24,017 nucleotides of DNA. Origin: a virus. The translations under genes and the position numbers were made by a program. Location: UHGV virus genome UHGV-0096010, one strand, 5' to 3'. The notes under the pieces are model-generated. The model was not told where the DNA came from. It saw only the letters and a list, made by a program, of their open reading frames with translations, and did no database searches. Positions within the stretch are counted from its first letter, which is position 1. Every line of letters starts with the position of its first letter. Positions 4,035 to 24,017 of this stretch are shown one piece after another.

Positions 4035-4048
4035 TATTATTTTCCTTG

Positions 4049-4432: not shown

Positions 4433-4436
4433 AAGA

Positions 4437-6163: not shown

Positions 6164-6178
6164 ACGCCCGTCTTTCTA

Positions 6179-6559: not shown

Positions 6560-6693
6560 TTTCCCTCTTTTTATGTGGATTATAAAAACTGAATGCCATA
6601 GTTACGATGAATATTGCTACAAATGCACTTGCCATATGTATTGCCCGATCTGTTGTTACTGATTGTTTGTGATGTTATAAATCATTTATTTCC

Positions 6694-7263: not shown

Positions 7264-7316
7264 TAAAAATCTCCTTGATGTAATCACGCTCTACGGCGCT
7301 ACTATGGTGATAAAAA

Positions 7317-7487: not shown

Positions 7488-7506
7488 AGTTTTCTCCTTC
7501 TCTTCT

Positions 7507-7707
7507 TTACTCTGTTTCAGATTCTTTTTCAGATCCTTTTTCATTTTTTCTTAATTCATCAATAATTTTTAGTGCATCGTCAAAGCATTTTTCACGCTCT
7601 GGATAACCACAGCGTCGCGCTGTGTTCCTGTTCATCCTTACTTTAAAACGGTTGATCTCACCACGTTTCCAGGCTTCCACAATATCCTGTGGAGTGAAAT
7701 ATTTCAT
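7507..7707 (-). CDS. hypothetical protein (66 aa)
   Basis: ATG at 7707 preceded by strong AGGAGG SD; first gene of the leftward small-gene cluster. Confidence 0.45.
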   Translation of the reverse strand: MKYFTPQDIVEAWKRGEINRFKVRMNRNTARRCGYPEREKCFDDALKIIDELRKNEKGSEKESETE

Positions 7708-7950
7708 TAATTAACCTCCTATTCTATTTAGTTAAAAGAAATAGACACCTTGCAAGCCTTGGGCTTCAAAGTGCGATGCATTGGTTTAATTATTTAAAGG
7801 ATAAGAATGTTTTCCTGCCCCTAATATTACTTTACCACGACTAAAGGCTTTTGTCAACCCCCCAGCCATAAAAATATTGATCATTTTCAGTGTGTTATGA
7901 TTTTTCTTAGCAATTCGTGCTCTTACGAATACTCCAATTCTTCATTATTG

Positions 7951-7980
7951 TCTAAAACGCTCTAAAACGCGTTCTAACGA
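7951..7980. repeat. tandem 10-bp direct repeat (TCTAAAACGC x2 plus degenerate third copy)
   Basis: read directly from sequence. Confidence 0.6.
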
Positions 7981-8550
7981 GGTTTTGATAAAAACAATAC
8001 ATTCCCTTATGTAATGGCTGTTTAGCTCGCCTACGGTTTGATTTAAGCGGTAGAAACTCATCTACTACCTAACATCTTTAAACCATATTTTTCTTTTTTG
8101 TCTGTTTGATGGTTGATCTATAGTTATGCGTTAGCATCCCCAAAGGGGTAACGCTACCCTAATTGCATTCGCAAGAACATTGCACAAGAAATTTATTTTA
8201 GATGATTGATGATCGTTAGATGGTAGTTAGTTAATTATCGTTCTGCGCACAGCGCAAGACTATTTAGCCTTACGCAAGCCGTAGGCTATTTGCACATAGT
8301 AGATTACATATTCGTTGTGAGCGGAAAGCGAACATAGATCTACTAACTAACATTAACAAACAAAAACTATGTGTTATGAGAAGTATCAGTCTAACTGACT
8401 AACACTCTAACTTGTGCAAGGTTCTGGCGAATGCCAATAGATTAAGGGATAGTCGAAGACTCCCTAACGGGTATCCCTATAATTATTCTTTAAAGATAAA
8501 AGAATTTATAAAAGATAATTTAATTGTAGTTTGATAGTTGATCTAATAGG

Positions 8551-8687
8551 TAACAAAATTCTGTAGGGGTGGCTAACAGTTTTCTGTGGGGGTGTCTAAC
8601 ATAATTCTGTTAGGGTTGGGGTAACAGTTTTCTGTTAGGGTGCATATTTCTTTAAAAGTTAAGGATAACAGAATTCTGTGGGGGTAG
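8551..8687. repeat. iteron-like array: five direct repeats of ~21 bp, core TAACA-N3-TTCTGT-N-GGGGT
   Basis: copies at ~8551, 8574, 8597, 8622 and 8666; four are tandem with ~22-25 bp period, the fifth follows an AT-rich gap; non-coding context 0.8-1.3 kb from the Rep-like gene. Confidence 0.6.
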
Positions 8688-9641
8688 CTCACAGTGACCT
8701 ACCGTTACATCCATCACATAACATCTGTGCAATGATCTTCTTATAATCAGTAAAAGTCTTTCTTGCTATCAAAAATTAAACATCTAAAACAAGCTTAAAT
8801 TCAAGATTAATTGATGATTAATCCCTGTGTAATTCCATACTAAAAAATCCAAGAAAAATGGCTTCAAAATGCAATTCTTACTTTCTTCACTTTTGCGTCA
8901 TCATCAGCAAAGCCTTATGTTATGCGGCATATAGCGCATCACTGCAAAATTGTTGCTCAATAAACGTTCTATCATTTGTTGAACAAGTTCTTTCACGTGT
9001 TGAAAATTTATGTTTAAATTTGCTTTCAATCTTTAATGTGCAATCACTATCAACATAAAAATAAAAAACCTTCCATTATATTTCATAGCATACAAAAGTC
9101 AATAGAAGCCCTCTCGTGCTCCTACGTAAAAAATCCACCATTTTTCCCCTGATACATCAACTCAAGGCGTTCTATGTGTTCCTTAGTGCATATTACGATT
9201 ATTATGTTAAATGGATTTTGGCCTATATTTTGACCTGCACCCGCATAAACACTGGTTTCATCGCTTACAGCCCTTGTGAGACGTGGTGCTGTTTCTAGCA
9301 TCTGATCCGACATAAAACCGATCATTCTCGTGTTTAGTGAAAGTTTAGTGAGAGACATTACAGAAAGGCTTTCTGTGTAATGATTTAATAGGTAAAAACG
9401 ATGTTGATTACGCAAGAAAATTCCTTGCTGATATTTGGGGATTCTGGATTTTCCAGATCGGGGGGCGCTGAAAATCGCGTTAAGCACTTCTCGCAATCTA
9501 GCCATAAGGGAAGGGATATAGGTATTTAGATGTATTTATAGCTATTTATTTTTTATTTATCTTTATTTAAAAATAACCTTATAAATCAATAATATACAGA
9601 ACAATCTGTTTATATTTTAATCAATTAAATCAAGTTTAATA

Positions 9642-9674
9642 CCCTTAAATACCCTAAAAATAGCCTTAAATACC
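9642..9674. repeat. two copies of CCTTAAATACCC spaced 21 bp apart in an AT-rich tract
   Basis: read directly from sequence; a partial third copy (TAATACCC) lies just upstream. Confidence 0.45.
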
Positions 9675-9839
9675 CCAATAATTAATTTTAAGGCTTTCCG
9701 TGTTCTCTTCTGCATTATGAAAATGCAAAATAAGGCACAAAACAAGCTCACAGACGCATTAAACACACATCACCTACACATCCCTATACCAAGCAATGAA
9801 AACAGCGTTATAATGCGTCCTGTTGCGTTCTGGAGATTT

Positions 9840-9998
9840 TCAGAAATCCTCTCTAAGCCATTTCAACTCACTAAGGAGTTTTCTTTCTTCGTTCTCTCGT
9901 TGCTTACGCTCTAGCCAGGCTTTTCCTTCTGGCGTAGACAGGAACTTACGAGCGTGAATCTTGCGGTTATTACGTTTGATAGCTGCAATGTTTTTCAT
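9840..9998 (-). CDS. small basic hypothetical protein (52 aa)
   Basis: ATG at 9998 with AGAGG SD 7 nt upstream; translation MKNIAAIKRNNRKIHARKFLSTPEGKAWLERKQRENEERKLLSELKWLREDF; not in ORF track because it is under 60 aa. Confidence 0.25.
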   Translation of the reverse strand: MKNIAAIKRNNRKIHARKFLSTPEGKAWLERKQRENEERKLLSELKWLREDF

Positions 9999-10603
9999 CG
10001 TGTGCCTCTGTATTCATATGAAAATTAACAAGTTACATACTACACAGGGAGACTACGCATAAAACACAATACAAGTAAAGATACATTTTCAAGACAATAG
10101 GAGCCATAAAGCGCCTTTGATGGTTATACCAAAAAATAAGCGCCGTAGGCGTATCCACTAAAAAGGGCTTTTTCACAAAAGCTATGAAGTCTTAGCAGTT
10201 CTTCTCTTATCAGGCACCCGTTGTACTCCGGTGGACGAAACCGTGCTAGAGCTTGATTCTTTCCCGATCAAGTTAGGTTTTGAAGAGGTGGGCTTTAATC
10301 CACTATTGCACTTAAAACTCTTCCCATCATTTAGCCTGTTTATCCTCTGCAACGTCTCACGACGTGTAGCATCATTGGACACCGCGCCAGGTGTGGAACA
10401 TCTTGCTAAGAGTTTTGGTAGAAGGTTTAGAGACGGTGGCACGTCTTCCAGCTTCAAAGGAACTTGTTACGAGGTTGAGCCTGGGAACTACTCGCCCATA
10501 CGTGTTACACTACCAAAGCCCATAACAACGTATAGGCGTTTGTAAGTGATAACAGAAGATACAATTTCTTAGAGAAGTTAAGCTAAGTTATTGATTTTCT
10601 TGA

Positions 10604-10649
10604 TGGTGCCGATAATAGGAGTCGAACCTACGACCTTCGCATTACGAAT
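10604..10649 (-). tRNA. 3-prime 46-nt fragment of a tRNA-Thr(CGU)-like gene (anticodon-loop through CCA); integrase attachment-site type repeat, not a complete tRNA
   Basis: minus-strand reading ATTCGTAATGCGAAGGTCGTAGGTTCGACTCCTATTATCGGCACCA shows a T-arm (GTAGG/TTCGACT/CCTAT), acceptor 3-prime strand, discriminator and CCA; sequence upstream of it cannot form the D-arm or 5-prime acceptor strand; matches from memory the 3-prime half of enterobacterial thrW. Confidence 0.6.
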
Positions 10650-11048
10650 TATAAGAATCCGCTTCTAATTCAAAGCATTACCCCATCAACACTGCGCTCA
10701 CACGTCCCACCACATCAAAACATGTAAAGCCTTGCAAGTCATTGCGAGGCCTTATGTGTCTCAGTTTTGTCCCACCTTGTATTACGACTTGCATAGCCAA
10801 TGAAGATAAATGTGACGACAAACGGCGCAGCAGTCTTCTTTTCCTTCATACTTTCCCCACCCAGCATGCATACCTTCTACCATAACTGTAGTGAATGTCT
10901 GTTATGAGCGAAAAGCGGACAGGAACATTCTGGTTAATAGATATCAATGCTAACAAAAAAGCTCCCGATGGAGATTTTGAAACCGCTTCCACATAATGAG
11001 ATAAAAGGATTTATTTCTGGTCATGCCCACACATTGACCACGTCGAAG

Positions 11049-11077
11049 TAAGTAGCTCCGCTTCGCGGAGTTACTTA
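11049..11077. other. strong palindromic hairpin (13-bp stem, 3-nt loop) downstream of the SIR2-like gene
   Basis: GTAAGTAGCTCCGC / TTC / GCGGAGTTACTTA; no flanking U-tract on either strand, so not a canonical intrinsic terminator. Confidence 0.35.
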
Positions 11078-11175
11078 AGATAATTTCTATGTAGTTCCAT
11101 GCTATGATTTAATTTTCAAGTTACAAAATCTAAATCTACAAATGTCCATTTGGGTGTAAAATTACACAATCCTAT

Positions 11176-13501
<2,326 letters not shown>

Positions 13502-13802
13502 TTTAATTACCTTATATATCCAAACTCTTAATTTTCTCTTTTTTACCATAGGATTAATCCAAAATAAAGACCTTGTTGACTAAACCCTCATGTACAAAAT
13601 GCACACTTACTCAAAAGGATCTGGAGGTAATCTCGACCTTCATGATTTAGTTCCTAGGGATAAGCAGAAATCTAGCACTGGATTAAAATTTAAAAATAAT
13701 AATCAATAGGTTATAATGGTTTTTATTCGCATCCATGGGATCTGCTGCTGCCCGCATGATGTTGGATGCGACGGCGATGGCACGACCTCACCCGGTGAAA
13801 CG

Positions 13803-14249
13803 ATGAAACGCGAAAGGGTTGTTCTTCGGGAAGGTGCAGTTGGACTTTCAATCGATGCCGTTGCAAAAGAGGCTGGCGTCAGTAAGGCAACGGTAATGTA
13901 CGATCATAAGTCAAAGCAAGATTTGCTCAGCGATCTCATCAGTCGCCTTATGCCAGTAGAGGAGGAACGTGTTCAGCAAGCGATAGCGGAAAGTAATAAT
14001 ACCCCACATCCCGCACTCTATGGGCGAATTATTTCAGCCAGTAATGCTCTCAGTCATACTGAGAGAGCAATAGTGCTGGCGGTCAGCGAATCGTTAACTA
14101 ACGATACGAATATCAGGGACACCATGCGTTCCTGCACAAACAAAGATTTGGATGAGATAAAAAGAGGACCAAAACCAGACGTTGCCGTCCTGGTATATTT
14201 GGCGTTATCTGGTATCTACTGCCAAGAATTTTTTGATTTTTACAAATGA
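13803..14249 (+). CDS. TetR-family-like transcriptional regulator (short, 148 aa)
   Basis: N-terminal HTH LSIDAVAKEAGVSKATVMYDHKSKQDLL fits the TetR signature; preferred ATG at 13803 with GGTGA SD; the longer ORF-track start 13716 overlaps a TATAAT hexamer and is probably not coding. Confidence 0.5.
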   Translation: MKRERVVLREGAVGLSIDAVAKEAGVSKATVMYDHKSKQDLLSDLISRLMPVEEERVQQAIAESNNTPHPALYGRIISASNALSHTERAIVLAVSESLTNDTNIRDTMRSCTNKDLDEIKRGPKPDVAVLVYLALSGIYCQEFFDFYK

Positions 14250-14576
14250 TCTCCTGGCGAGCGAGATAAAATTATCGAAGGCATTCGCTGTTTGTATGAA
14301 TCATACCCTTATAAGTCTGAATAAATAATGTCTCCGGGAATGACATTTCATGTGCGACTAATTCGCGATATTCCTATACGTAAAGGTCCGCTTTTGGCAC
14401 ATAGCAGCCCTAGAGACAGTGGCGTAAAGTCATGGAGAATCGGTGGGAGGATATTCAGTTTCATTCATGCCGAAATACGGTAAAATCTATAACAGATAGA
14501 AATCATTCAATATTCGCACTATCAGAAGCTGGCCAGCCAGCCGCAGCACTTTCTTGCATACGACGAGCCTGCGGTT

Positions 14577-15131
14577 TCATTTATCTCCGACCGGAAACTT
14601 CTTATACAGTGTCGATACACCAACATCATAGATGATCGCCACCTTCTGGCGAGGAATTCCTGCTGCAATTAATCGTCCGGCCTGCGCCCATTGTTCTGGT
14701 GTAAGTTTGGGACGACGTCCCCCAATTCGTCCCTGTGCGCGAGCAGCTTCCAGTCCAGCTTTTGTTCGTTCAATAATCAGTTCTCGTTCCATTTCAGCCA
14801 GGGCACCCATCACATGAAAGAAAAAACGCCCCATCGGTGTGCTGGTATCAATAGCATCCGTCAGGCTGCGAAAATTAACGCCACGTTCGCGCAACTCCTC
14901 AACCAGAATGACCAGATGCCGCATACTACGCCCCAGCCGATCCAGTTTCCAGACAACCAGTGTGTCACCTGCCGATAATGTCCTGAGCAGTTTTTTCAGT
15001 CCCGGCCTTTCGGACTTTGTACCGCTTATCTTGTCTTCAAAAATCAGCTCGCATCCTGCACAGTTCAACGCATTACGTTGTAGATCTGTGTTCTGGTCAT
15101 TTGTTGATACGCGTACATAGCCAATAAGCAT
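14577..15131 (-). CDS. pin: Gin/Pin/Cin/Hin-family serine DNA invertase
   Basis: start at MLIGYVRVSTNDQNTDLQRNAL; conserved VWKLDRLGRS, GRFFFHVMGALAEMERELIIERT and C-terminal HTH GIPRQKVAIIYDVGVSTLYKK; lies immediately beside an invertible tail-fibre segment. Confidence 0.9.
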   Translation of the reverse strand: MLIGYVRVSTNDQNTDLQRNALNCAGCELIFEDKISGTKSERPGLKKLLRTLSAGDTLVVWKLDRLGRSMRHLVILVEELRERGVNFRSLTDAIDTSTPMGRFFFHVMGALAEMERELIIERTKAGLEAARAQGRIGGRRPKLTPEQWAQAGRLIAAGIPRQKVAIIYDVGVSTLYKKFPVGDK

Positions 15132-15185
15132 GGTAGATCCCCCTGACAAAAGCAGGAATGATGCCATTTGCTCGTTATTTCTGCA

Positions 15186-15211
15186 TTTTCATAAACGTTG
15201 GTTTGAGAGAA
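15186..15211 (+). other. invertase crossover site (gix/hix-like), distal
   Basis: TTTTCATAAACG-TT-GGTTTGAGAGAA; imperfect 12-2-12 dyad matching the Hin/Gin site pattern, inverted relative to the partner site at 17052-17077. Confidence 0.7.
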
Positions 15212-15832
15212 GGTTCATTTGGGTTCAGAAATCTGGTTACCTTCACAACGGCTGGAGTAACAAGCTGGACTGTTCCTGAAGAGTTGCGCAAAGGAAGAAA
15301 ATGTTACGTCAAAGTTATTGGTGGCGGTGCGTCAGGAGGGATAGGTTCAACAACCGCTTCAGCCGTTACATGTGGCGGAGGAGGTGGTGGGGGCGGAGTT
15401 GCTGAGGGACTGGTAGATTTAACTGGTATAAACAGTGTTTCGATTACGGTTGGTGCCGGTGGTGCGCCTGTGTCTGGTATTTCTGTAAACGGTAAAAATG
15501 GTGGCTCGAGCAGTTTCGGGACTTACATGTCAGCTTCCGGAGGCTATAGCGGAGGCCAGCCTTCCGGAGGGTTAGGCGCAGTTGGTGTCGGGGGAACAAT
15601 TAATACATCGCTTGGGCCAGGTTCTCCAGGTTCCATTGCTTCTGCCGCATCGGGGGCTGGTAATGGTGGTTCTGGTGGTGGCCCCGGAGGAGCAGGTTCA
15701 TTCAGAGATACAGCTAACGGAAAAGCGGTATCAGCAGTTGGGCCTGGAGGTGGCGGTGCAGGATTATGTCCTAATTCATCAACGGGTCAGTCGGGTGCCG
15801 GAGCAGATGGCGCAGTTTATATTTACTGGTGA
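15200..15832 (+). CDS. alternative tail-fibre C-terminal cassette (silent orientation), glycine-rich
   Basis: open frame from the crossover site to TGA at 15830-15832; no start of its own; begins ...NVGLREGS like the expressed fibre at its crossover (...NLGLGEGS); Gly-rich with poly-G run, resembling adhesin-tip regions. Confidence 0.55.
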   Translation, partial: GLREGSFGFRNLVTFTTAGVTSWTVPEELRKGRKCYVKVIGGGASGGIGSTTASAVTCGGGGGGGGVAEGLVDLTGINSVSITVGAGGAPVSGISVNGKNGGSSSFGTYMSASGGYSGGQPSGGLGAVGVGGTINTSLGPGSPGSIASAASGAGNGGSGGGPGGAGSFRDTANGKAVSAVGPGGGGAGLCPNSSTGQSGAGADGAVYIYW

Positions 15833-15839
15833 GGTTCAT

Positions 15840-16010
15840 ATGTGGGCAAGAATTGAAGAAAATAAAGTAGAAGAGATAACGGAAATTAATCCTGAAGGAA
15901 GATTCCATCCATCATTAATATGGAAAGAATGCCCTGCTGACACACAGCAGGGGGATTTATATATTGATGGTGAGTTTATTGCGCAGTCTCCGGCAGTTCA
16001 GGCCAGATGA
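15840..16010 (+). CDS. small ORF (56 aa) downstream of alternative cassette; candidate alternative fibre chaperone or truncated tfa-prime
   Basis: ATG at 15840 with GGTGAGG SD 7 nt upstream; converges on and overlaps the 3-prime end of the minus-strand Tfa gene. Confidence 0.35.
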   Translation: MWARIEENKVEEITEINPEGRFHPSLIWKECPADTQQGDLYIDGEFIAQSPAVQAR

Positions 16011-16584
16011 CATCCGGCGCGGTGCTGGTATCTGTTGCCGTCACCGCGTCAATGTAATCCAGCACGGCGTTAAGTCGGGTTGTTTCTGCCAGCGTCAACT
16101 TCCGTCCGGCCTGTAATTTCAGCTGAATCAGACTAATGGAAGCCATTGCTGCATCAATCAGTGACTGGCGCTGTGCTTCTGCCGCGTCTACTGCGGCACT
16201 ATGCTGTGCCTCAGTATCGGTCACCCATTTCTCACCATCCCATTTATCATATGGCGTTAACGGGGCGATAGTGGTTGTATTTTCAGGGTAATCACCCGGA
16301 GCTGTGATTTCTTTCGATTCTCCTGTTTCGGTGCTATAGATGATTTCACCGCGATGGTCTGGCACATATTCCCATGAGTTAAAATCTGCAGAACGGCAGA
16401 TTGCATAACCAGTTTTGTATGAGCCAGGAGCATCTAAACAGGAACATGCCGGAATGCCGACACCCACAGCAAGATATTCATTTGAAGTGGAAATATATTC
16501 CCGTATTTCACCATCATAGTTATAGACGGTAATATTCCCTGCCTTCGTGGCAATAATCTCGCTATTTAATACAGCGTTATCCAT
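15976..16584 (-). CDS. tail fibre assembly protein (Tfa / gpG-gpU family)
   Basis: 202 aa; ATG overlaps H stop by 1 nt (TAATG); C-terminal region with W..KW.TDTEAQ...STAPDVIWPELP typical of caudoviral tail-fibre assembly chaperones. Confidence 0.75.
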   Translation of the reverse strand: MDNAVLNSEIIATKAGNITVYNYDGEIREYISTSNEYLAVGVGIPACSCLDAPGSYKTGYAICRSADFNSWEYVPDHRGEIIYSTETGESKEITAPGDYPENTTTIAPLTPYDKWDGEKWVTDTEAQHSAAVDAAEAQRQSLIDAAMASISLIQLKLQAGRKLTLAETTRLNAVLDYIDAVTATDTSTAPDVIWPELPETAQ

Positions 16585-17885
16585 TATGCAGCCCTCACAA
16601 TATAATTAAAGGCAATGTTACGTGGGCGGTTCTCATTTGCGGTTGGGACAACGGCTGAAGCATTAAAATTCGCATACAGGGAGCGTTGATACCCGGATGC
16701 TGATGCACCACTTAATGCGGGAGCTTTTGACTCCGAAGCCGAAAAGGCCCCTGACACGTATCCTAATAACCCTTGTGAATCGCCAATTGAACTGTAGCCA
16801 ACCACCCCGGTAATGTTTCGGATAGCATCTCCTTGTGCTGAAAGCAGAGTTCGCCCACTATCCACTCCCTTTCCACCATCCCAGCCACGAATAAACTCAC
16901 CGCGTAAATCAGGCAATTTTAACGTCGGGTAAGCCTTTGCCAGATTAGGGTAATCTTCAGCAGAAAAAGCCGCACCGTTGCATTTCAGCCAGCCTGTTGG
17001 CGGTGTGGCTGAAGGCCATGGAACAGGCACACCAACAGGCAGCGCAGAGCCTTCCCCTAAACCAAGGTTTTGTAGAAAAACAGAAACGTTTTCTATGTCT
17101 GAACCATTTGCCGATTTATCCATCTTTCCAGCGAGTGAATTTGTTACGGTGGTAGCAAAGTTAGGATCATTACCCAAAGCCGCAGCAAGTTCATTCAGCG
17201 TATCCAGCGCTTCAGGCGAAGAGCCAACCAAAGCAGCAATAGCAGCCTGAACGAAAGCTGTATTTGCAATTTGAGTAGAACTATCTTTGCCTTCCGCCGT
17301 TGGCGCAGTCGGCCTGCCAGTAAGAGCGGGACTTTCTTTTGGTGCGTATTGTTTATGCGGATCAGCCGCAGCTACATGCGCTGCCATTTTCTGATCAACA
17401 TAGCTTTTCACCTGGATGATCTGATCATCAACATACTGTCGGGTTGCCAGAACTACCGAAGGGTCAATTTTCAGCGTTACGGCAGCGGTGCTGCTGACAA
17501 TCAGGATCATGCGTACAACCTGTACGCGCCCGCTTCCCTCCTGTAACTGCGGCTTATACGTTTCCGCACAGTTGGCTACGGCAATCATATCGCCGTCTTT
17601 ATCGAATAAACCGATTTCACGGATCCACCACCCGCCCTCGTCTTCAGGGATCACCTGCTCGGCAATAATCTGGTTGGCGTTATTCGGGTCAATGCTCAGA
17701 CTATTAAGCGGCTTGCGGCGCAGCTCATGAACCAGCGCCGTTTGTGCCGGGTTCGGCGTCGGCAACACGCCGTTACCATCGCCTACAGCCATCTTGGTGA
17801 TTTCAACCTGCGCACCCAATGCCGTGGCATTTGCCAGTTTCGCCGCGCCCACATTGGTTAGCACGGCATAATATTTAGTCGCCAC
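16584..17885 (-). CDS. H: tail fibre protein, P2 gpH-like N-terminal domain with tail-collar-type C-terminal variable region
   Basis: N-terminus ...NVGAAKLANATALG...MAVGDG...AEQVIPEDEGGWWIREIGLFD...AVANCAETYKP...EGSGRVQVVRMILIVSS and internal TQIANTAFVQAAIAALVGSSPEALDTLNELAAALGNDPNFATT match remembered P2 H; C-terminal LPDLRGEFIRGWD collar motif; GTG at 17885 with GGAG SD preferred over ORF-track TTG at 17906. Confidence 0.8.
   Translation of the reverse strand: MATKYYAVLTNVGAAKLANATALGAQVEITKMAVGDGNGVLPTPNPAQTALVHELRRKPLNSLSIDPNNANQIIAEQVIPEDEGGWWIREIGLFDKDGDMIAVANCAETYKPQLQEGSGRVQVVRMILIVSSTAAVTLKIDPSVVLATRQYVDDQIIQVKSYVDQKMAAHVAAADPHKQYAPKESPALTGRPTAPTAEGKDSSTQIANTAFVQAAIAALVGSSPEALDTLNELAAALGNDPNFATTVTNSLAGKMDKSANGSDIENVSVFLQNLGLGEGSALPVGVPVPWPSATPPTGWLKCNGAAFSAEDYPNLAKAYPTLKLPDLRGEFIRGWDGGKGVDSGRTLLSAQGDAIRNITGVVGYSSIGDSQGLLGYVSGAFSASESKAPALSGASASGYQRSLYANFNASAVVPTANENRPRNIAFNYIVRAA
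17052..17077 (-). other. invertase crossover site (gix/hix-like) inside the tail-fibre gene
   Basis: minus-strand reading TTCTACAAAACC-TT-GGTTTAGGGGAA, encoding ...FLQNLGLGE...; partner of the site at 15186-15211. Confidence 0.7.
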
Positions 17886-18489
17886 TTGCGATCTCCACGG
17901 TGTCAATTAAATGGATTGCCGCCCCGGTGTAATCATCACCGCCCACGGCTATGGTTTCAGGAAAATACGGGTACACGGTTAGCGTATCGCCGGAATAACT
18001 GCCCGCGCCGATATACAGATCGCCGGTTGTTTGCAGGTGAAGAGACATTCCCAGCATATGACGGCTGCACGGCTTCACATCGGCGATCAGGCGTTCAAGT
18101 TCCTGATAGGTTTCTTCACTAATGCCCTGGTCTTCCACGCCAATATCCAGCGTGAAGGTGCCCGGTGCGGTGTCGATGTTCCACCACTCGTTAACCCGGA
18201 TGAAGAAGCCGAACGGCTCCACAACCCGGCGCATGGCGCCCGTTGTACCCTTGTACTTATGCAGGTAAAACGCATCGGCCACCGCCTTTCGTTTTGTGTT
18301 TATCGGCCAGGCCTCATCCCAGCGATCAACGGAGAAGGCCCACGCCAGATAGGGCAACAGATCAGCCCGACACGTCCACGGGTTCCACAACTGGCGCAGC
18401 GGCACGGGCACTTCACCCAACGACGCACAGACGCGCGCGGCGACGCGCTCCATTCGGCTGGCGCTGGGTGGTAACAGGTCATTACTCAT
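17875..18489 (-). CDS. I: baseplate assembly protein, P2 gpI-like
   Basis: preferred ATG at 18489 (MSNDLLPP...); LLPP...LW.PW.C...LLPYLAWAFSVD.W pattern of the phage tail protein I family; synteny J-I-H. Confidence 0.7.
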   Translation of the reverse strand: MSNDLLPPSASRMERVAARVCASLGEVPVPLRQLWNPWTCRADLLPYLAWAFSVDRWDEAWPINTKRKAVADAFYLHKYKGTTGAMRRVVEPFGFFIRVNEWWNIDTAPGTFTLDIGVEDQGISEETYQELERLIADVKPCSRHMLGMSLHLQTTGDLYIGAGSYSGDTLTVYPYFPETIAVGGDDYTGAAIHLIDTVEIASGD

Positions 18490-19393
18490 CGTAACCACCC
18501 ACCGTTATGGTGTATTCGGTGCAGTGCGATGCCTGGTAGTCACTCAGCACAATATCCGCAACAGGCTGCGCCAGTTCCACGCGCTGGACGCCTTCGACGT
18601 GCAGGGCGGCGTAGATAGCTGAAAGACGGATATCGCGCCCTAAGCGATTCTGCGCGGCAATATACGCCTGTAACTGCTGTTCCGATGCCTGCCGGACGGG
18701 TTCAGCTTCCGGCCCCGGATAGATGTAAAGCGTTGCATCAATCTGATACGGCACGATCTCCGCAGACTGCACCGTTACCCTGTCGGCCACCGGGCGCACT
18801 TCTTCATCGTTCAGGGCAGCAGCGACCACGGAAAGCAGATCATCGCTGGCCGTTCCGTCACCTTCGCGCGACAGCACCGAAATGGTGACGCAGGCAGGCG
18901 TAGGACTCACCGCCGAAATATCAGCTACGCGCCCGTCTGCTGAACGCCCCCAAAATTCATACGCCGCAGTTGGCCCGGCCACGCTCAGACCTTCAAAAGC
19001 CTGCTGGGTACGCGTGCGTAAATCTGGGTCTGACTCCATCACGGCTTCAATTGGCGGTGTAACGCTGTCGTCTTCTTCCTGAATGGTCAGACGTTCAACG
19101 TTGAAATTGACCGCCAGATTATCCAGATCGCTATCCGTGGAATAAGCCAGCATCACCGCGCGGGCTGCTTCATTCACCCGCTGGCGCAACAGCAATTCGC
19201 GATAGCAATTCTCTTCCAGCAGCATGGTGATCGGCTCCGATTCAAGCTCAAGCGTGCGGGCGATCTCTTCCTGCTCGTCTTCCGGGTACATCGCAATAAA
19301 TGCCGCCTTGCGCTGCGCGAAAAGCGTTTCGAAGTCCAGCGGTTCAACCACCACGGGCGGCGGTAGCTGCGATAAATCGATCGTGCCGCTCAT
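18482..19393 (-). CDS. J: baseplate assembly protein, P2 gpJ-like
   Basis: 303 aa; N-terminus IDLSQLPPP...EPLDFETLFAQRKAAF...YPEDEQEEIARTLELESEP...LLEENCYRELLLRQRVNEAARAVMLA closely matches remembered P2 J; ATGA overlap with W. Confidence 0.85.
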   Translation of the reverse strand: MSGTIDLSQLPPPVVVEPLDFETLFAQRKAAFIAMYPEDEQEEIARTLELESEPITMLLEENCYRELLLRQRVNEAARAVMLAYSTDSDLDNLAVNFNVERLTIQEEDDSVTPPIEAVMESDPDLRTRTQQAFEGLSVAGPTAAYEFWGRSADGRVADISAVSPTPACVTISVLSREGDGTASDDLLSVVAAALNDEEVRPVADRVTVQSAEIVPYQIDATLYIYPGPEAEPVRQASEQQLQAYIAAQNRLGRDIRLSAIYAALHVEGVQRVELAQPVADIVLSDYQASHCTEYTITVGGYDE

Positions 19394-19740
19394 GCCTGGC
19401 CCCTCAATGTAATATCAGCGTTAAATGGCGTCTGATTGTCGGTGCGATTGGCCTGGATAGTGGCAACCAGCCGACCGGCACCCGGCGCGCTCAGGGTGAT
19501 ACTGGTCAGAGAGATCCGCGGTTCCCATAAATACAGGGCGCTGTAGATGGCAGACATAACGCGCAGCTTCGTTATGGCGTTATCTATCAGGTTGAAAAGC
19601 TGCGAACCGTAAGCGCGGCGCATTACACGGGAACCGATCGGCGTTAACAGAATATCGCCGATAGACTGCGCTATATGCTCGTTGTCGGTGATGGCATGGC
19701 CTGAACTGGCATTCATGCCGCTGTAACGGACTGTACTCAT
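19390..19740 (-). CDS. W: baseplate protein, P2 gpW-like (gp25/GPW family)
   Basis: 116 aa; ...HI.QSIGDILLTPIGSRVMRRAYGS... typical of the GPW/gp25 family; synteny V-W-J. Confidence 0.8.
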   Translation of the reverse strand: MSTVRYSGMNASSGHAITDNEHIAQSIGDILLTPIGSRVMRRAYGSQLFNLIDNAITKLRVMSAIYSALYLWEPRISLTSITLSAPGAGRLVATIQANRTDNQTPFNADITLRGQA

Positions 19741-20366
19741 ACCGGGCCACCTGTATTACTACCACCGGACTGGACGCCGCTATGTTTGTGAGAATGGACA
19801 ACGACACCATTAGACGAAAGCGATCCGCCTGAATGGGTAATATTGCCCTTCATTTCCCCGCCCTTTTGCACTTCCAGCGTGGCGGTGATCAGCTTGTTGG
19901 TGCAGACCACTTCCGGCGTGTCCAGGGTAACGCGCGTATCTGCCTTGACCGTTACCACCGGCACGGTGGCGGTAATGGATTCCGACGCGGTGACGCTTGC
20001 CGTTTTTACCCCGCTGACAACCAGCGTGCTGGCCTCCGGGTCATATGAAATACGGGCGCCATCCGGGTGCAGGATCACGCAGGTGGTAGCGCCAGCATCT
20101 GGCGGCGGTGCGTCTTCGCTGTAAAGGCTTCCGGCAATGAATGCCGTCTCCAGCTCACCGCAGGGGCACAAAATATAAACCTGTTCGCCCACTGTCGGCG
20201 CCCACCACGTCACGGCTTCACCGGCGCGCGGCACTGCCCAGCGGATCCAGTCGGTTTTGTTCTCGCCGGTTTCGACGCGTGCAAGATACTTTTCCGTATC
20301 CACTTCCAGCACGGTGCCAATGCGGGCGAGATTGCAGATAAGGCGATAGAGTTCGTTTAAATTCAT
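19737..20366 (-). CDS. V: baseplate spike/hub protein, P2 gpV-like
   Basis: 209 aa; ...TWWAPTVGEQVYIL...; C-terminal TASVTASESITATVPVVTVKADTRVTLDTPEVVCTNKLITATLEVQKGGEMKGNITHSGG matches remembered P2 V. Confidence 0.85.
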   Translation of the reverse strand: MNLNELYRLICNLARIGTVLEVDTEKYLARVETGENKTDWIRWAVPRAGEAVTWWAPTVGEQVYILCPCGELETAFIAGSLYSEDAPPPDAGATTCVILHPDGARISYDPEASTLVVSGVKTASVTASESITATVPVVTVKADTRVTLDTPEVVCTNKLITATLEVQKGGEMKGNITHSGGSLSSNGVVVHSHKHSGVQSGGSNTGGPV

Positions 20367-20504
20367 AGTGCTGACTGTTTCCCGTGGTGCCGGTTACGCT
20401 GTCCGGCGTCGTTTCCACCCGGTAGCAGGCTTTACGACCGTTTCGGCTTTTGGGTTATGCAGTCAGTATCAGGAGTCGCGCGCGCGCAAACAACGCGGCA
20501 CCCT

Positions 20505-20522
20505 TGTGGCGGGTTGGTGACA
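20505..20522 (-). promoter_or_regulatory. P2-type late promoter activator site (TGT-N12-ACA dyad) upstream of gene V
   Basis: minus-strand TGTCACCAACCCGCCACA in the S-V intergenic gap; a -10-like GATACT lies where expected if the dyad is centred near -55; this matches the remembered architecture of Ogr/Delta-dependent late promoters. Confidence 0.55.
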
Positions 20523-20523
20523 A

Positions 20524-21168
20524 TCAAATCTCTTGCATGAAGGCGACAACAGTATCGACCAGCCAGTCTAAATCCCCCTCGGTCATGCCCAGGAGTTCAC
20601 GCACCGGGTAGCGTGCACGGGCACCCGGCACCACGTTATCGACTTCACCGTACTGGTGAACGCTGGCAATTTCGGCGGTATGCCCCTGAAAGCCAACCAC
20701 TGCCATGCCGCCCGTACCGTAAGCCTTAAGAAAGCGTGCGGTGCGCAGCTTGCGGAACATCGGATCCTTTCTGGTGCGGTTTTGCTTTGACTGGTTGAGA
20801 TTGATTTCAATATAGCGCTGGATATCGCGCTTATAGAACGTGCGCAGGGCACCGCGATCAACGTCATAGCCGGTGATTGCGCGGTGCTCACCCCTGCCCG
20901 TGGTTCGCCAGTTGCGTAACTCCCTGGCCTCATCATTCCATACGAATTTTATCCCGCCCTGGGTGCGCAGAATTTTGCGGCGGCGGGCCTGATAGCTTTC
21001 ACCGCTGGGGTTCTTCTGGCTGGCGATACGCTTTTGCTGGCGCTTACGCAGCCCGATCGCAACGTCGCGCGTCAGCTTGCGACGGTGTCCGGGCGAAAGC
21101 TGCGCGGCAACGCTGGCTAACCAGTCGTCTAACTGCTGGAAGAGGGGATCGGTTTGTTGTCCTGCCAT
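20524..21168 (-). CDS. S: virion morphogenesis / tail completion protein, P2 gpS-like
   Basis: 214 aa ORF with ATG start; position between R and V as in P2; family call by synteny and general composition. Confidence 0.55.
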   Translation of the reverse strand: MAGQQTDPLFQQLDDWLASVAAQLSPGHRRKLTRDVAIGLRKRQQKRIASQKNPSGESYQARRRKILRTQGGIKFVWNDEARELRNWRTTGRGEHRAITGYDVDRGALRTFYKRDIQRYIEINLNQSKQNRTRKDPMFRKLRTARFLKAYGTGGMAVVGFQGHTAEIASVHQYGEVDNVVPGARARYPVRELLGMTEGDLDWLVDTVVAFMQEI

Positions 21169-21623
21169 GTTTCGCCGCTGACCTCATCAACAAATACCAG
21201 TGACCACGCGCCAATTTCCGGCCCCGGTGCAGGGTCAGCACGGTGACGGGTGACGATCTCGCCATCTTCACGGGTGACGATCACCGCTTCATCAGCCTGA
21301 ATCTGGATCAGTACGTCCATCGTGCTGTTACTCAGAATATCGGCTTCGAATGTTATGCCGTTCTGCTGCCTGTCCGGGTTAAACAACAGATCAGGCTGAT
21401 ATAAGCGCGCCCATGCCAGCACCGGCACGCTGATAGTATCCAGAGATTCAGGGTAATCCATCACCAGCACTTCCAGCGTATAGCGATACTCAAACGCAGC
21501 AGCACGCTGGCCGGTGCTGACCATACGACCTTTTCGCAGATAAACCGCCAGATTATCGGGATTTTCGCGCAGCCAGGGCACATGCTGGCTTATCATCTGG
21601 CGCAGTAAATCGGGTTTAAGCAT
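21129..21623 (-). CDS. R: tail completion protein, P2 gpR-like
   Basis: 164 aa; N-terminus MLKPDLLR and central ...RYTLEV...VPVLAW....QPD... resemble remembered P2 R; synteny. Confidence 0.65.
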   Translation of the reverse strand: MLKPDLLRQMISQHVPWLRENPDNLAVYLRKGRMVSTGQRAAAFEYRYTLEVLVMDYPESLDTISVPVLAWARLYQPDLLFNPDRQQNGITFEADILSNSTMDVLIQIQADEAVIVTREDGEIVTRHRADPAPGPEIGAWSLVFVDEVSGETWQDNKPIPSSSS

Positions 21624-22127
21624 TACTTATTCCCCCCGGACTTAACCGCATCATATGCAGCCTCACAGGCTAATCCTCTGGCTCTTGCTTCATCAGCTTC
21701 TCTTGCCAGTTCCCCCGCTCGCTCGTCAGCCCGCTTAAACAGGTCGGCAAGCAATGCGGCACCGCTGGCTTTTGCCTCGCTTCTGCCGGGAGTTCCGGCA
21801 CCGCAGGCACGTTCACGGTCTGCCAGTCTTCTGGCGAGTTCGTCGGCTTTGGCGTGCAGCCCACGAGAAACAGCACTGGCACGATCGGCAGCAGCCTGCA
21901 CGCCAGCAAGCTGCTGACTGGTTTCTGATCGCATCAATTTCACCTTGTCGGCGTTGTTCTTCTGTCCTGGCCTCAGCCTGCCTTTGCGCCAGCGCGGTGG
22001 CGTCGCGTGCATCACGTTGCGCCCACTTTTCACGCCAGTGCTGATCTGCATCACCGTAACCAGCGCTGTAACGCCAGTGGCTAAAACCCCATACAGCAGC
22101 AGCGGCCAGCACAAGACAAACGATCAC
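21623..22127 (-). CDS. Rz/LysB-like i-spanin with coding signal split between two reading frames (apparent frameshift)
   Basis: N-terminal TM segment plus charged helix (MIVCLVLAAAAVWGF...WREKWAQRDARDATALAQRQAEARTEEQRRQ) in the frame starting at 22127; Ala/Arg-rich coiled-coil-like C-terminal domain (...ADELARRLADRERA...AREADEARARG...) in the frame ending at 21623. Confidence 0.45.
21670..21909 (-). CDS. Rz1/LysC-like o-spanin lipoprotein, embedded in the i-spanin region in another frame
   Basis: signal-peptide-like N-terminus with lipobox LVGC, then proline-rich mature region (TPKPTNSPEDW...PAVPELPAEARQKPAVP); start codon TTG. Confidence 0.55.
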   Translation of the reverse strand: MLACRLLPIVPVLFLVGCTPKPTNSPEDWQTVNVPAVPELPAEARQKPAVPHCLPTCLSGLTSERGNWQEKLMKQEPED

Positions 22128-22241
22128 TTTCCAACCCCATATCTAAACCTCTCGCCAGCTCGCACTGTCATTACCGTACGTGCTGGAGCACTGTCAAAAA
22201 TGACCGCGCTCGATACGCACGGCCAGCACGGTTAGACATGA

Positions 22242-22721
22242 TCACGACTCAGAAACGGAGCGCGTACCGGATAGCTGCGGCAATGGTTGAACATCGACAG
22301 GAATATCTTTCGGCCAGCGATATCCAGATACCCGCGATGTAGAAAACGCACGGATATTCACCGCATCACTCTGATTTCCACCCAGTACCATCAAATCGCC
22401 ATTTGCCTGCTGACCAACAACAAAGCCAACGTGACCGCCGCCGTCACGGCTGAATACCACCACACAACCATATGCAGGTTTATCCAGCTTCACCCCCCAA
22501 TTAAGATAAGATGCGGCTGATTCAAAGCGGCTTGATGTGATACCTGAACGTTCCAGCACTCCCCCAACGTAAGCCGCACACCACGGCGTTTCGTCGTCCT
22601 TAATACCGCCTCGTTTTATATCCTTCCAGAACTGTAAAATTAGCGGGTTATGCTCTGGCCCTTTAATTTCCTTTTCACCAATATATTTACGACCTTCAAC
22701 AATCCATGATGGTTCTTTCAT
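22242..22721 (-). CDS. putative endolysin / peptidoglycan hydrolase (Cys-His peptidase-like)
   Basis: 159 aa between holin and spanins; conserved Cys (PWCAAYVGG) and His (GGGHVGFVVG) spaced as in CHAP/NlpC-P60-type hydrolases; function assigned mainly by lysis-cassette synteny. Confidence 0.55.
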   Translation of the reverse strand: MKEPSWIVEGRKYIGEKEIKGPEHNPLILQFWKDIKRGGIKDDETPWCAAYVGGVLERSGITSSRFESAASYLNWGVKLDKPAYGCVVVFSRDGGGHVGFVVGQQANGDLMVLGGNQSDAVNIRAFSTSRVSGYRWPKDIPVDVQPLPQLSGTRSVSES

Positions 22722-22785
22722 GGCTGCATTCCTCTTTGACAGTGAATAAAACCGCCAACCAGCAAATCATTTCAGGTGATGGGAT

Positions 22786-23115
22786 TTATTCCCCGCCCTT
22801 CATTCCGCCGATACGGTTTTCGATAAACCCAGTAACTTTGTTGCGGACTTTATCCGCTCCCATAAATCCGATTGAGGCGCCCACGAACGTTACTGCGTTG
22901 GACGGAAGCCCCAGATATTCCAGCGAACCGGCCACAGCAAGCGTGACAATCCCACATACCAGCGATCCGGTGGCGGTTTTAAGCAAAGACTGCCCATCGT
23001 AAAGGCTCATTAGCGCCGAAATACTCAGCGCCGCACCAGCCGCAAACAGTGTCGGCAGATAAGTAGCGATCCATTTCATTGTTTGTTCGAGTAATCCCGG
23101 TGGTGTGTCGTGCAT
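22786..23115 (-). CDS. holin
   Basis: small protein with hydrophobic TM segments (LPTLFAAGAALSISALM, LVCGIVTLAVAGSL) and C-terminal GFMGADKVRNKVTGFIENRIGG motif; second in-frame ATG at 23079; ORF-track start 23235 likely over-extended. Confidence 0.6.
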   Translation of the reverse strand: MHDTPPGLLEQTMKWIATYLPTLFAAGAALSISALMSLYDGQSLLKTATGSLVCGIVTLAVAGSLEYLGLPSNAVTFVGASIGFMGADKVRNKVTGFIENRIGGMKGGE

Positions 23116-23125
23116 ACCCTCCCCC

Positions 23126-23326
23126 TTAATCCCATAGCTGCACGGTTTCCCGCTGGGCTGGCGGCTGGATCTCTGGCAGGTAGACAATCTGCCCGGCCTG
23201 CAACTCAGTGGCGGCGGAAATGCCCTTATTGGCATCGATCACCGCCTCGGTAACGCCTGCTGTTCTGCCGTAATAGCGCCAGCAAAGCAGGTCGATCGTG
23301 TCGTTTTGCTGCGCCTGAACGTTCAT
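23126..23326 (-). CDS. X: tail protein X, P2 gpX-like (LysM-like)
   Basis: 66 aa; NDTIDLLCWRYYGRT...GQIVYLPE matches the LysM-like pattern of P2 X; synteny L-X-holin. Confidence 0.8.
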   Translation of the reverse strand: MNVQAQQNDTIDLLCWRYYGRTAGVTEAVIDANKGISAATELQAGQIVYLPEIQPPAQRETVQLWD

Positions 23327-23814
23327 TACACCAACTCCGCCAGGCCCCGGCTTTCGTCCTGGATATCACGGATTGACCAGCGCACATCCCGCCACAGCGT
23401 ATCGATCTGCGTGCTCAATGCCGCCGCGTGGTCTTCGCCTTTACTGGTGGTGTCAATATCGCGGTAGCCTTCAATCAACAGCGCCTTAGTGAGTGAATAC
23501 ACGGCGTTTTTATAGCGCCATACCTTCACGGAAGTGCCATTCACCGGACTGGCCGGAATTTCTGCCAATGACTCATAGCCCGCATCAATCTGCACCTGGC
23601 GCCACAGGAAAAGCTGATCATTAACATGGGCCACCGCTTCCACCGTTCGCGACATCAGGCGATCGGTTGTCACCTGCCCATCAAGACGCATCGCGCGGCG
23701 TAGTTCAGCCAGCGAAATGACCGGCCAGAATGGCAGGCTTTCAACCTTCGCGCCGCCATCATCAGGCACTGGATCGGATGGTGGCCGTACTGGCTCAGTG
23801 GCTACCAGACTCAT
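23326..23814 (-). CDS. L: head completion/stabilisation protein, P2 gpL-like
   Basis: preferred ATG at 23814 (MSLVATEP...) with GGAG SD; the ORF-track GTG extension to 23910 is low-complexity and probably non-coding; assignment by synteny. Confidence 0.55.
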   Translation of the reverse strand: MSLVATEPVRPPSDPVPDDGGAKVESLPFWPVISLAELRRAMRLDGQVTTDRLMSRTVEAVAHVNDQLFLWRQVQIDAGYESLAEIPASPVNGTSVKVWRYKNAVYSLTKALLIEGYRDIDTTSKGEDHAAALSTQIDTLWRDVRWSIRDIQDESRGLAELV

Positions 23815-23916
23815 GATCTCTACTCCGTATAAGTCAGGCGGTGGACGGCAGGACGAAGACGCGGCGTTGCCTGTTTTCGCCTGCCGTGCCGCCTGGGTGC
23901 GCGGGGGCACGTTCGG

Positions 23917-24017
23917 TTATGACGCCGCCTTCTGGCGGGCTGTCGTGGTTCTTTTCTTCGCTGCCGGCTTGCTTTTAGCGGCGGGCTTTTTGGTTTCCCG
24001 CTTCGCTTTTGGCTGGG
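23917..24017 (-). CDS. 3-prime end of an upstream gene truncated by the window edge, possibly terminase small subunit (gpM-like); lysine-rich C-terminal tail
   Basis: open frame reading ...QPKAKRETKKPAAKSKPAAKKRTTTARQKAAS then stop at 23917-23919; no start within window; frame choice uncertain. Confidence 0.3.
   Translation of the reverse strand, partial: QPKAKRETKKPAAKSKPAAKKRTTTARQKAAS

Follow-up and report, generated by a model that had tools for sequence, protein, structure and literature searches.

The locus described here raises the question of whether a tail-fibre gene, a neighbouring serine invertase gene and the segment between them form an inversion switch, and what such a switch could still do where a P2-type baseplate operon ends. 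We analyzed the whole of the virus genome UHGV-0096010 (24,017 nucleotides, called the window below), which matches E. coli assemblies at 99–100%. A Gin/Pin-type host-range switch had been proposed by the first-pass annotation, and we arrive at the same class: the locus is very probably a site-specific inversion switch of the Din family (Gin/Cin/Pin/Hin). Its structural elements (the serine invertase, the two sites and the two cassettes with in-frame fusions; Table 1) are all intact and in canonical arrangement, and the same cassette is found flipped in sister prophages. The switch as such is of the textbook Mu/P1/e14 type and its layout is common and published for P2-like prophages; the new part is the mosaic context in which it lies.

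Table 1. Features of the switch and its surroundings (positions in the window).
Feature	Position	Strand	Sequence or evidence
Serine DNA invertase, PinE orthologue, 184 aa	14577..15131	-	Pfam Resolvase 7.8e-52 + HTH_7
Candidate Fis-dependent recombinational enhancer	15047..15110	.	In invertase 5' coding region; position and motif
Crossover site A, invertase-proximal	15186-15211	+	TTTTCATAAACG-TT-GGTTTGAGAGAA, 26 bp, 12-2-12
Cassette 1 (silent): glycine-rich fibre tip Gly_rich_2	15188..15832	+	Pfam PF21722 2e-11, PHROG 863 2e-29
56-aa partner ORF of glycine-rich tip	15840..16010	+	Presumed assembly or accessory factor
Chaperone of cassette 2: Tfa (tail-fibre assembly protein), 202 aa	15976..16584	-	Pfam Caudo_TAP 6.8e-32
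Cassette 2 (expressed): variable fibre C-terminus, tail-collar domain	16584..17063	-	Pfam Collar 4.7e-15
Crossover site B, within fibre gene	17052-17077	-	TTCTACAAAACC-TT-GGTTTAGGGGAA, 26 bp, 12-2-12
Constant fibre N-terminus, P2 gpH-like, GTG start, ~274 codons	17065..17885	-	Pfam Phage_tail_fib 5.1e-66
P2-type baseplate genes I, J, W, V, upstream of fibre gene	17875..20366	-	Pfam Tail_P2_I

Results and Discussion

Crossover sites

The two 26-bp sites with 12-2-12 architecture were confirmed in both position and sequence, and when computed as inverted repeats they indeed lie in inverted orientation, match at 18 of 26 positions and carry the same central TT, with two differing positions between their inner halves. 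They flank a 1.87-kb segment that adjoins the intact invertase gene. Judged as a plain inverted repeat the pair is unremarkable: the repeat search returned it with 24 nt and 79% complementarity (15193-15216 / 17047-17070), together with numerous chance pairs that were about as good. The significance of the sites lies therefore in their match to known recombination sites rather than in generic inverted-repeat quality. Using a half-site matrix made from the Mu gix and e14 sites only, with the references taken from the Mu and K-12 records, site B scored 26.9 bits and site A 24.2 bits, far above any other position in the 24-kb window (8.9 bits at most) and the top value of 30 shuffles (18.4). The comparison with known sites suggested as a check by the earlier reading was obtained for gix and the e14 sites, and the scan gave exactly two sites and no third one in the window. 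The core pattern WAAACSWWSGTTTW matches three times (0.29 expected); the third match, at 12210, is inside the Ham1 gene, has no flanking half-site similarity and was rejected.

Site A agrees with the pin-proximal site of e14 at 25 of 26 positions, differing by one base from the published e14 repeat TTGGTTTGGGAGAAGG, and is the same as the site in the e14-like prophages L018 and L021. Site B is identical to the fibre-internal site of the P2-like prophages L005 and L007, and its outer half is also present in L002, joined there to a glycine-rich cassette. The two sites stem from different lineages.

Fibre gene and alternative tips

In both sites the central TT takes codon positions 2-3 (CTT-GGT and GTT-GGT), and the residues around the crossover are near-identical (NLGLGEGS vs NVGLREGS), just as the first-pass annotation had it. 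Its prediction of an in-frame fusion to the plus-strand cassette held as well: inversion in silico gives an unbroken 484-aa ORF, the first 276 residues of which are those of the native 433-aa fibre, so that a constant N-terminus of 274-276 aa is retained across the exchange. As in the Mu G, P1 C and e14 P segments, the crossover is located in the fibre ORF and the alternative C-termini each come with an accessory gene. The two cassettes are convergent, each with a fibre tip and a small partner gene, and both fusions are in frame, the alternative products being 433 aa (Collar with a Caudo_TAP Tfa) or 484 aa (Gly_rich_2 with the 56-aa ORF).

Public proteins contain the constant N-terminus at 99–100% identity in combination with Collar, Gp53-like_C and several Gly_rich_2 tips. 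The collar tip belongs to the 433-aa fibre P0108, a protein that occurs in identical form in other E. coli P2-like prophages. The glycine-rich cassette is open in frame from site A, with an ATG at 15158 outside the segment; near-identical C-termini are fused to fibre N-termini in the E. coli proteins P0013, P0004 and P0028, and a full-length fusion 96% identical to the predicted one exists as P0001. A sequence search of the PDB gave no match for the glycine-rich tip, and neither Pfam, PHROG nor NCBIfam gave one for the 56-aa ORF. Homologues of 54-56 aa are encoded directly 3' of Gly_rich_2 fibre genes in Budvicia and Leminorella prophages without invertase, and the 56-aa product is presumed to act as an assembly or accessory factor. 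A Gly_rich_2 tip with a partner of ~55 aa in place of a Tfa chaperone would be an uncharacterised two-gene module for fibre tips.

Invertase and candidate enhancer

The Pin/Gin-like invertase gene abuts the segment as had been noted, with its start codon 54 bp from site A. The protein is identical to E. coli K-12 PinE in 176 of 184 aa (96%) and to Gin in 143 of 184 (78%), and residues 1-181 align end to end with the Mu Gin structures 3UJ3 and 4M6F. Ser9 and Met114, the roles of which have been described (PMC3575834), are both present. The locus thus has two of the features that characterize the Din family, namely a small serine recombinase (~180-195 aa, nucleophilic Ser9/10, C-terminal HTH) and two inverted 26-bp 12-2-12 sites of imperfect dyad symmetry with the same central dinucleotide.

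Din systems use a recombinational enhancer in cis that is bound by Fis and normally located in the 5' part of the invertase gene, ~100 bp from one of the sites. Position and motif point to a candidate enhancer in the 5' coding region of the invertase gene. The centre of a Fis-like G-N13-C motif, GTATCAACAAATGAC, falls at position +29 of the gene and is separated from that of site A by ~96 bp. The motif is also found in e14 pinE, in Mu gin, in the invertase gene of L007 and, with one substitution, in that of L019. A weaker G-N13-C motif, read from the printed sequence, follows ~49 bp further on, and the first 240 nt of the gene are identical to e14 pinE at 232 positions. The Hin enhancer has 65 bp and is located ~100 bp from hixL (PMC3798978), and the candidate resembles it in position and size.

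Inversion activity at this locus, its dependence on Fis and the enhancer, and the role of the 56-aa ORF are inferred. In the proposed mechanism PinE-like dimers would bind both 26-bp sites and, together with Fis on the enhancer in the 5' part of pin, would form the invertasome; both sites would be cut at the central TT and, after rotation, the 1.87-kb segment between 15199 and 17064 would be flipped. In the present orientation the fibre gene reads from the constant N-terminus into the tail-collar tip and is followed by the Tfa chaperone gene, and in the inverted state the N-terminus would be fused in frame to the glycine-rich tip, followed by the 56-aa partner gene.

Both orientations in related prophages

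The window inverted in silico is colinear over 5 kb (98.8%) with the E. coli locus L002, which encodes the 484-aa fusion P0001. L001 and L019 represent the same P2-like prophage with a 1.9-kb block inverted at 99.7% identity, the ends of the block being at the sites. From the comparison of the e14-like prophages L018 and L021 with L020 it can be seen that each inner half-site travels together with its cassette and the outer one keeps its place, and the exchange is therefore confined to TTGGTTTG. Comparison of public genomes, with no experiment involved, thus places the natural exchange within 8 nt surrounding the central TT. Among 54 complete E. coli genomes carrying the glycine-rich cassette it adjoins pin in 19, and in about half of the 40 matches listed the annotated fibre gene (stfP or 'phage tail protein') overlaps the cassette, which is consistent with the fused state; two of these, L019 and L020, were inspected. 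Inversion of the e14 P segment by PinE has been shown experimentally (PMC12529663, PMC4272514).

For the exact locus one orientation is on record. The exact 484-aa fusion is in no cluster of proteins at 90% identity, and the flipped junction was found by neither strict nor relaxed exact scans of metagenome and genome collections, the predicted recombinant junctions being CTACAAAACCTTGGTTTGAGAGAAGGTTCATTTGG and TTTTCATAAACGTTGGTTTAGGGGAAGGCTCTGCG. Together with the mixed origin of the two sites, their 18 matching positions and the truncated prophage around them, this would fit a frozen relic, in which the parts look intact, the segment no longer inverts and the fibre is fixed in the collar form, for instance owing to an unproductive enhancer or hybrid site pair. 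We regard such a loss of activity, including these suggested causes, as improbable: the invertase ORF is intact and has its catalytic serine, both sites score as well as the functional gix and e14 sites, and each outer half-site is found elsewhere in recombined configurations. Moreover, Din invertases accept diverged half-sites and substitute for each other; PinQ inverts the e14 segment although it is only 38% identical to PinE (PMC12529663), and e14 itself is defective and still flips (PMC4272514).

Mosaic prophage context

On the P2-like side the genes follow the order R-S-V-W-J-I-H-G of a late operon of this type and have domains of the P2 family (Pfam Tail_P2_I, Phage_tail_S, Phage_tail_fib); gene calls on the identical contig L008 are GpR, S, V, W, J and I. 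The baseplate region shares 99% identity with L007, an intact P2-like prophage, and 95.8% with the Salmonella phages SEN4/SEN5. The latter match pointed to a Salmonella origin, which was rejected in view of the 99–100% matches to E. coli assemblies. Such a position had been called less expected for a switch of this type, a view that we cannot share, as intact E. coli P2-like prophages (L001, L019, L002, L005 and L007) show the same layout. Inversion in P2-like prophages of EPEC has been shown experimentally (PMC4272514), and 'Phage tail protein I' is 11-fold enriched beside genes targeted by inversion (PMC9881135).

What follows the fibre genes is of another origin. The locus is a mosaic, in which a P2-like late operon up to tfa adjoins an e14-like right prophage end made up of the glycine-rich cassette, pinE, defence-like cargo and a tRNA-Thr att remnant. 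The cargo beside the invertase encodes a TetR protein, a CARF-ADA-like deaminase, Ham1 and a ThsA-like SIR2 protein. Unlike in L007, P2-type genes for sheath, tube, tape measure, U, D and ogr after the invertase are absent from the window, and a phage able to build virions, as a host-range system requires, was not found within it; the missing genes may be located in another part of the genome. As the locus is such a mosaic, a working phage able to exploit the switch is probably absent here. Of the host-range switching originally proposed, the Mu/P1/e14 type of switch stands, and its current function at this place is doubtful with an e14-like right end following the operon. More generally, invertible cassettes and invertases move between prophage types as unrelated as P2-like and e14-like ones, and their exchange can yield chimeric prophage ends or rearrangements of the chromosome.

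The join itself might come from the assembly. According to this explanation one genome would contain two prophages, each with a complete switch, one being the source of the P2-like part and the other of the pinE/cargo part, and a short-read assembler would have joined these parts via the ~1.2-kb cassette that is almost identical in both. Positions 15200-16400 are ~100% identical to cassettes in P2-like (L001, L019) as well as e14-like prophages (L018, L020, L021). The part of the window from 6584 to 24017 (17.4 kb compared) is 100% identical to one SPAdes contig of 5.7x coverage, and the window stops at the end of this contig. The 202-aa Tfa is a mosaic with a change of donor at ~16400-16500, located by alignment and by identity per 100 nt, and among 153 billion gene positions the exact protein is recorded on this matching contig only; no complete E. 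coli genome covers at least 80% of 14400-18000. Against an artefact, four samples are recorded with the contig, and assemblers usually break contigs at such repeats instead of joining across them. In addition, the breakpoint zone at ~16405-16468 has substitutions of neither the L007 nor the L019/L018 type, so that the mosaic is no clean join of two parents. An assembly chimera is thus a serious alternative that we nevertheless hold to be unlikely, and we prefer a genuine mosaic.

The cargo and the truncated prophage could also suggest that the host has kept the switch as a reversible toggle for a function of its own, the glycine-rich and the collar tip being alternative ends of a short invertase-proximal protein that starts at ATG 15158. 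This protein would modify the surface of the cell or prevent other phages from adsorbing, as described for StfE2 of e14, through which inversion driven by PinQ/PinE was reported to block adsorption of T2 (PMC12529663), and the toggle would work alongside the adjacent defence-like deaminase, ITPase and SIR2 cargo. In favour of it, site A is preceded by the in-frame ATG-ATG leader MMPFARYFCIFINVGL, which is conserved in e14 as well as in e14-like or P2-like relatives and reads into whichever cassette is pin-proximal, and the ThsA-like SIR2 and CARF-ADA-like deaminase genes flank the invertase. However, in L007-type prophages stop codons break up the leader, its overlap with the upstream region of pin may account for its conservation, a promoter-like site for it was looked for and not found, and the experimental evidence concerns StfE2 and not glycine-rich or collar tips. 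We therefore give such a host function very little weight, and a Din-family fibre switch in a mosaic prophage end is the reading retained in the following comparison.

Comparison with known systems

The e14 P segment (stfP/tfaP, tfaE/stfE) with PinE is close to the locus in its invertase (176 of 184 aa) and its pin-proximal site (25 of 26 positions). In both, the invertase is at the right end of the prophage and is followed by a slot for defence cargo and a partial copy of the integration target, and they share a collar-type tip as well as a Tfa that contains tfaE-like sequence. They differ in the constant fibre part and the baseplate, which are P2-type here and of a Mu-like baseplate type in e14, in the Gly_rich_2 tip with its 56-aa partner instead of StfP/TfaP, in the cargo (TetR, deaminase, Ham1 and SIR2 vs McrA) and in the att remnant (tRNA-Thr vs icd).

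With the G segment of Mu and Gin (S/U vs S'/U') the locus shares a constant N-terminus and two convergent cassettes of tip and chaperone, 26-bp 12-2-12 sites with related half-sites, an invertase of 78% identity and the position of its gene immediately beyond the segment, where a baseplate/fibre operon of the V-W-J-I type ends. In contrast, the sites here have TT as their central dinucleotide and gix has TC, the segment measures 1.87 kb compared to ~3 kb, the tip domains are unrelated, and Mu is a complete phage whereas tail genes downstream are missing in the locus.

The order V-W-J-I-H(constant)-site-cassettes-site-invertase is common to the locus and the E. coli P2-like prophages (EPEC E2348/69, PMC4272514; L001/L019, L002, L005, L007). 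L007 and related loci encode the identical fibre protein, with 99.1–99.4% identity of the baseplate over aligned blocks, and L001/L019 carry the identical glycine-rich cassette. The invertases of the P2-like prophages have 188-193 aa and ~85% aa identity to the pinE-type enzyme of the locus, and they are followed by sheath, tube, tape measure and U and then by D and ogr, in contrast to the e14-type cargo found here. Fin of Fels-2 in Salmonella is a further invertible fibre system that is grouped with the segments of P2-like prophages.

Results and Discussion

As proposed in the first-pass annotation, the window carries a real invertible fibre switch with a recombinase, two crossover sites and in-frame cassettes, and the two 26-mers described there, each with a central TT, could be confirmed. 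Taken as a plain inverted repeat the site pair comprises 24 nt with 79% complementarity, and many chance pairs within the same 3.6 kb are equal to it. Because inverted-repeat quality alone was no better than that of chance pairs, we built a half-site matrix from known sites, using only independent references (gixL and gixR of Mu and two e14 sites, taken from the Mu and K-12 records). This matrix gives the two positions 26.9 and 24.2 bits; elsewhere in the window the highest score is 8.9 bits, and the best of 30 shuffles reaches 18.4 bits. The window has exactly two sites and therefore a simple two-state switch. The invertase-proximal site (site A) is identical to the e14 pin-proximal site in 25 of the 26 positions and includes, but for a single change, the published e14 repeat TTGGTTTGGGAGAAGG (PMC12529663). 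The claim that both sites share the same frame was also right, as exchange at the TT between site A and the site inside the fibre gene (site B) results in a continuous 484-aa ORF having 276 residues in common with the native 433-aa protein.

Features of the switch and the adjoining prophage sequence (plus-strand coordinates)
Feature	Position	Strand	Remarks
e14-like prophage end	10603-10919		opens with 47-nt tRNA-Thr 3' fragment (TGGTGCCGATAATAGGAGTCGAACC...)
AT-rich cargo block	11176-14249		34-38% GC; between invertase and prophage end
Tight three-gene operon	within 11176-14249	-	adenosine-deaminase-like, Ham1/ITPase, SIR2_2
TetR-like gene	13716-14249	+	in cargo block
Serine recombinase	14577-15131	-	184 aa; Pfam Resolvase + HTH_7
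ATG-ATG leader	15158-15190		MMPFARYFCIFINVGL; just outside site A
Site A	15186-15211		54 bp from invertase start codon
Glycine-rich frame	open from site A to 15832	+	PF21722 Gly_rich_2; PHROG 863 'tail'
56-aa ORF	15840-16010		follows glycine-rich frame
Caudo_TAP tail-fibre assembly gene	15976-16584	-	converges on 56-aa ORF
Fibre gene	16584-17885	-	GTG start; P2 gpH-like N-terminus (Phage_tail_fib), tail-collar C-terminus
Site B	17052-17077		inside fibre gene
P2-type genes I, J, W, V, S, R	upstream of fibre gene

Evidence for inversion comes from the relatives. Using the in-silico fusion protein as query against the protein collection, we found a 484-aa E. coli protein (P0001) matching it over the full length with 96% identity. 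Its locus (L002), a P2-like prophage whose baseplate is 99.4% identical to that of the window, is colinear with the in-silico inverted window across the junction (5 kb at 98.8%), whereas it aligns to the native window only with the cassette reversed, the breakpoints at 15193 and 17047 being the repeat arms. Furthermore, one canonical P2-like prophage is shared by two complete E. coli genomes (L001 and L019), whose W, J, I and TfaE proteins are identical and which hold the 1.9-kb stretch from site to site in opposite orientations (99.7% identity). In the e14-like prophages (L018 and L021 versus L020) the inner half-sites travel with their cassettes, GGTTTGAGAGAA always with the glycine-rich and GGTTTGGGAGAA with the collar one, and the outer half-sites remain with the constant part of the fibre or the invertase side. 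The natural exchange is therefore confined to TTGGTTTG, an interval consistent with cleavage at the central TT. The glycine-rich cassette adjoins the invertase in 19 of the 54 complete E. coli genomes carrying it, and in about half of the 40 listed entries an annotated fibre gene overlaps the cassette, consistent with the fused state, which inspection confirmed in L019 and L020. The flipped form of the exact window locus is not on record: exact and relaxed scans of metagenome and genome collections for the flipped junction were empty, P0001 is alone in its 90%-identity cluster and the window's own Tfa protein is found in one contig only. Switch activity at the locus itself is therefore an inference.

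Both cassettes pair a tip with a small partner gene, like Sv/U and Sv'/U' of Mu. No sequence related to the glycine-rich tip was found in the PDB, and the 56-aa ORF following it gave no family match. Homologues of this ORF (59–82% identical) lie directly 3' of fibre genes with a Gly_rich_2 tip in two prophages, a P2-like one from Budvicia and one from Leminorella whose baseplate is Mu-like. Both loci are without an invertase, and the ~55-aa ORF occupies the place of a Tfa gene, so it is probably the cognate accessory factor of the glycine-rich tip. In Escherichia, Budvicia and Leminorella (window 15840-16010 and loci L024-L027) this ORF is always directly behind the Gly_rich_2 fibre gene; in the E. 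coli loci inspected RefSeq calls it a hypothetical protein of 67 aa (L019, L020) or 115 aa (L001, L018, L021) overlapping the end of the fibre tip. A near-identical glycine-rich tip is also fused to other P2-like N-termini (P0013, P0004 and P0028 from E. coli), and the constant N-terminus of the window occurs in combination with Collar, Gp53-like_C and further Gly_rich_2 tips.

The invertase is identical to PinE of K-12 in 176 and to Gin in 143 of its 184 residues. Sequences of Mu Gin crystal structures align with its residues 1-181, and both the nucleophile Ser9 and Met114, the residue whose change renders Gin Fis-independent (PMC3575834), are kept. The five invertase genes compared all share a Fis-like G-N13-C motif, which carries one substitution in L019; in the window 96 bp separate it from the centre of site A, and a weaker G-N13-C motif follows ~49 bp further. 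By their position these motifs would form a candidate enhancer, resembling in placement that of Hin (65 bp, ~100 bp from hixL; PMC3798978). The ATG-ATG leader is in frame with whichever cassette lies next to the invertase, and it overlaps the pin upstream region of the opposite strand. Its conservation extends to e14, e14-like prophages and L001/L019, but stops interrupt it in L007-type prophages.

The locus is a mosaic. Between ~16500 and 24017 it shares 99–100% identity with intact P2-like prophages of E. coli, L007 among them, where gpU, tape measure, E, tube, sheath, D and ogr come after a 193-aa invertase. Position 15200 to ~16400 is ~100% identical to the glycine-rich/56-aa/tfaE cassette common to P2-like and e14-like prophages, and 14382-15212, the invertase with adjoining sequence, agrees at 95–99% with e14-like prophages that have Mu-type tails and ymfQ, compared to only ~76% for the L007 invertase. 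The donor switch lies inside tfa at roughly 16400-16500, where a short stretch matches no compared relative. Homologous recombination between two prophages through their related invertible segments would explain this most simply; it would have deprived the P2-like late operon of its tail and ogr genes at this place. Over the fetched part (17.4 kb, window 6584-24017) the window is 100% identical to NODE_69 of ENA ERZ1303392, a contig of 116.7 kb with 5.7x coverage, and it stops where this contig ends. A short-read mis-join through the shared 1.2-kb cassette is a serious alternative origin of the mosaic; we consider it rather unlikely, and the finding of a complete switch would stand in that case too. 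Among the relatives of the P2-like part, L004, L005 and L007 have the tail genes (sheath, tube, E, tape measure, U) on the strand opposite the baseplate/fibre operon, followed by D and ogr on the forward strand, unlike L001, L019 and L024 with colinear tail genes. The colinear order is that of phage P2 itself.

Beyond the invertase, the cargo operon encodes a 342-aa adenosine-deaminase-like protein (PADLOC CARF_ADA deaminase domain, 3.6e-36), a 184-aa Ham1/ITPase and a stand-alone 264-aa SIR2_2 protein (ThsA-like, 8.9e-32). In relatives this slot holds McrA, or restriction-modification and GIY-YIG genes, and the block may be an undescribed defence or counter-defence module. Behind the tRNA-Thr fragment the sequence agrees at 96–99% with the end of e14-like prophages that is distal to pin. 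ARAGORN found no whole tRNA; the fragment looks like an att remnant marking the prophage end, analogous to icdC in K-12 e14. Position 1-10649 is a separate, known AT-rich E. coli island; many complete genomes have it next to tRNA-Thr, the best matches at 99.7% identity. It shows iteron-like repeats (~8540-8700), a replication-initiator-like gene (6694-7287), a weak major-head-like gene (3003-4034) and tape-measure-like (775-2616) and Dit-like (50-727) genes. Within the ~3.4 kb at 7707-11176 no ORF is longer than 127 aa.

Conclusion

In summary, the window locus is an ordinary, mosaic member of a well-known switch type. The first-pass annotation had regarded such a switch as unexpected after a P2-type baseplate operon, but several intact E. 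coli P2-like prophages are arranged alike, inversion in P2-like prophages has been demonstrated experimentally (PMC4272514) and P2 'tail protein I' is strongly enriched beside inversion targets (PMC9881135). That switches of this type in defective prophages serve the host seems very improbable, and we grant the idea a small chance because e14 inversion was recently reported to produce a chimeric fibre fragment that blocks T2 adsorption (PMC12529663). The recombinase, sites and in-frame cassette architecture of the Din family are all found in the window, and its enhancer and the occurrence of both orientations at this locus are only indirectly supported. In its mode of action the switch resembles e14 P, Mu G and P1 C, and it differs, as a two-site, two-state system, from the multi-site P2-like locus of EPEC with its three repeats (PMC4272514).
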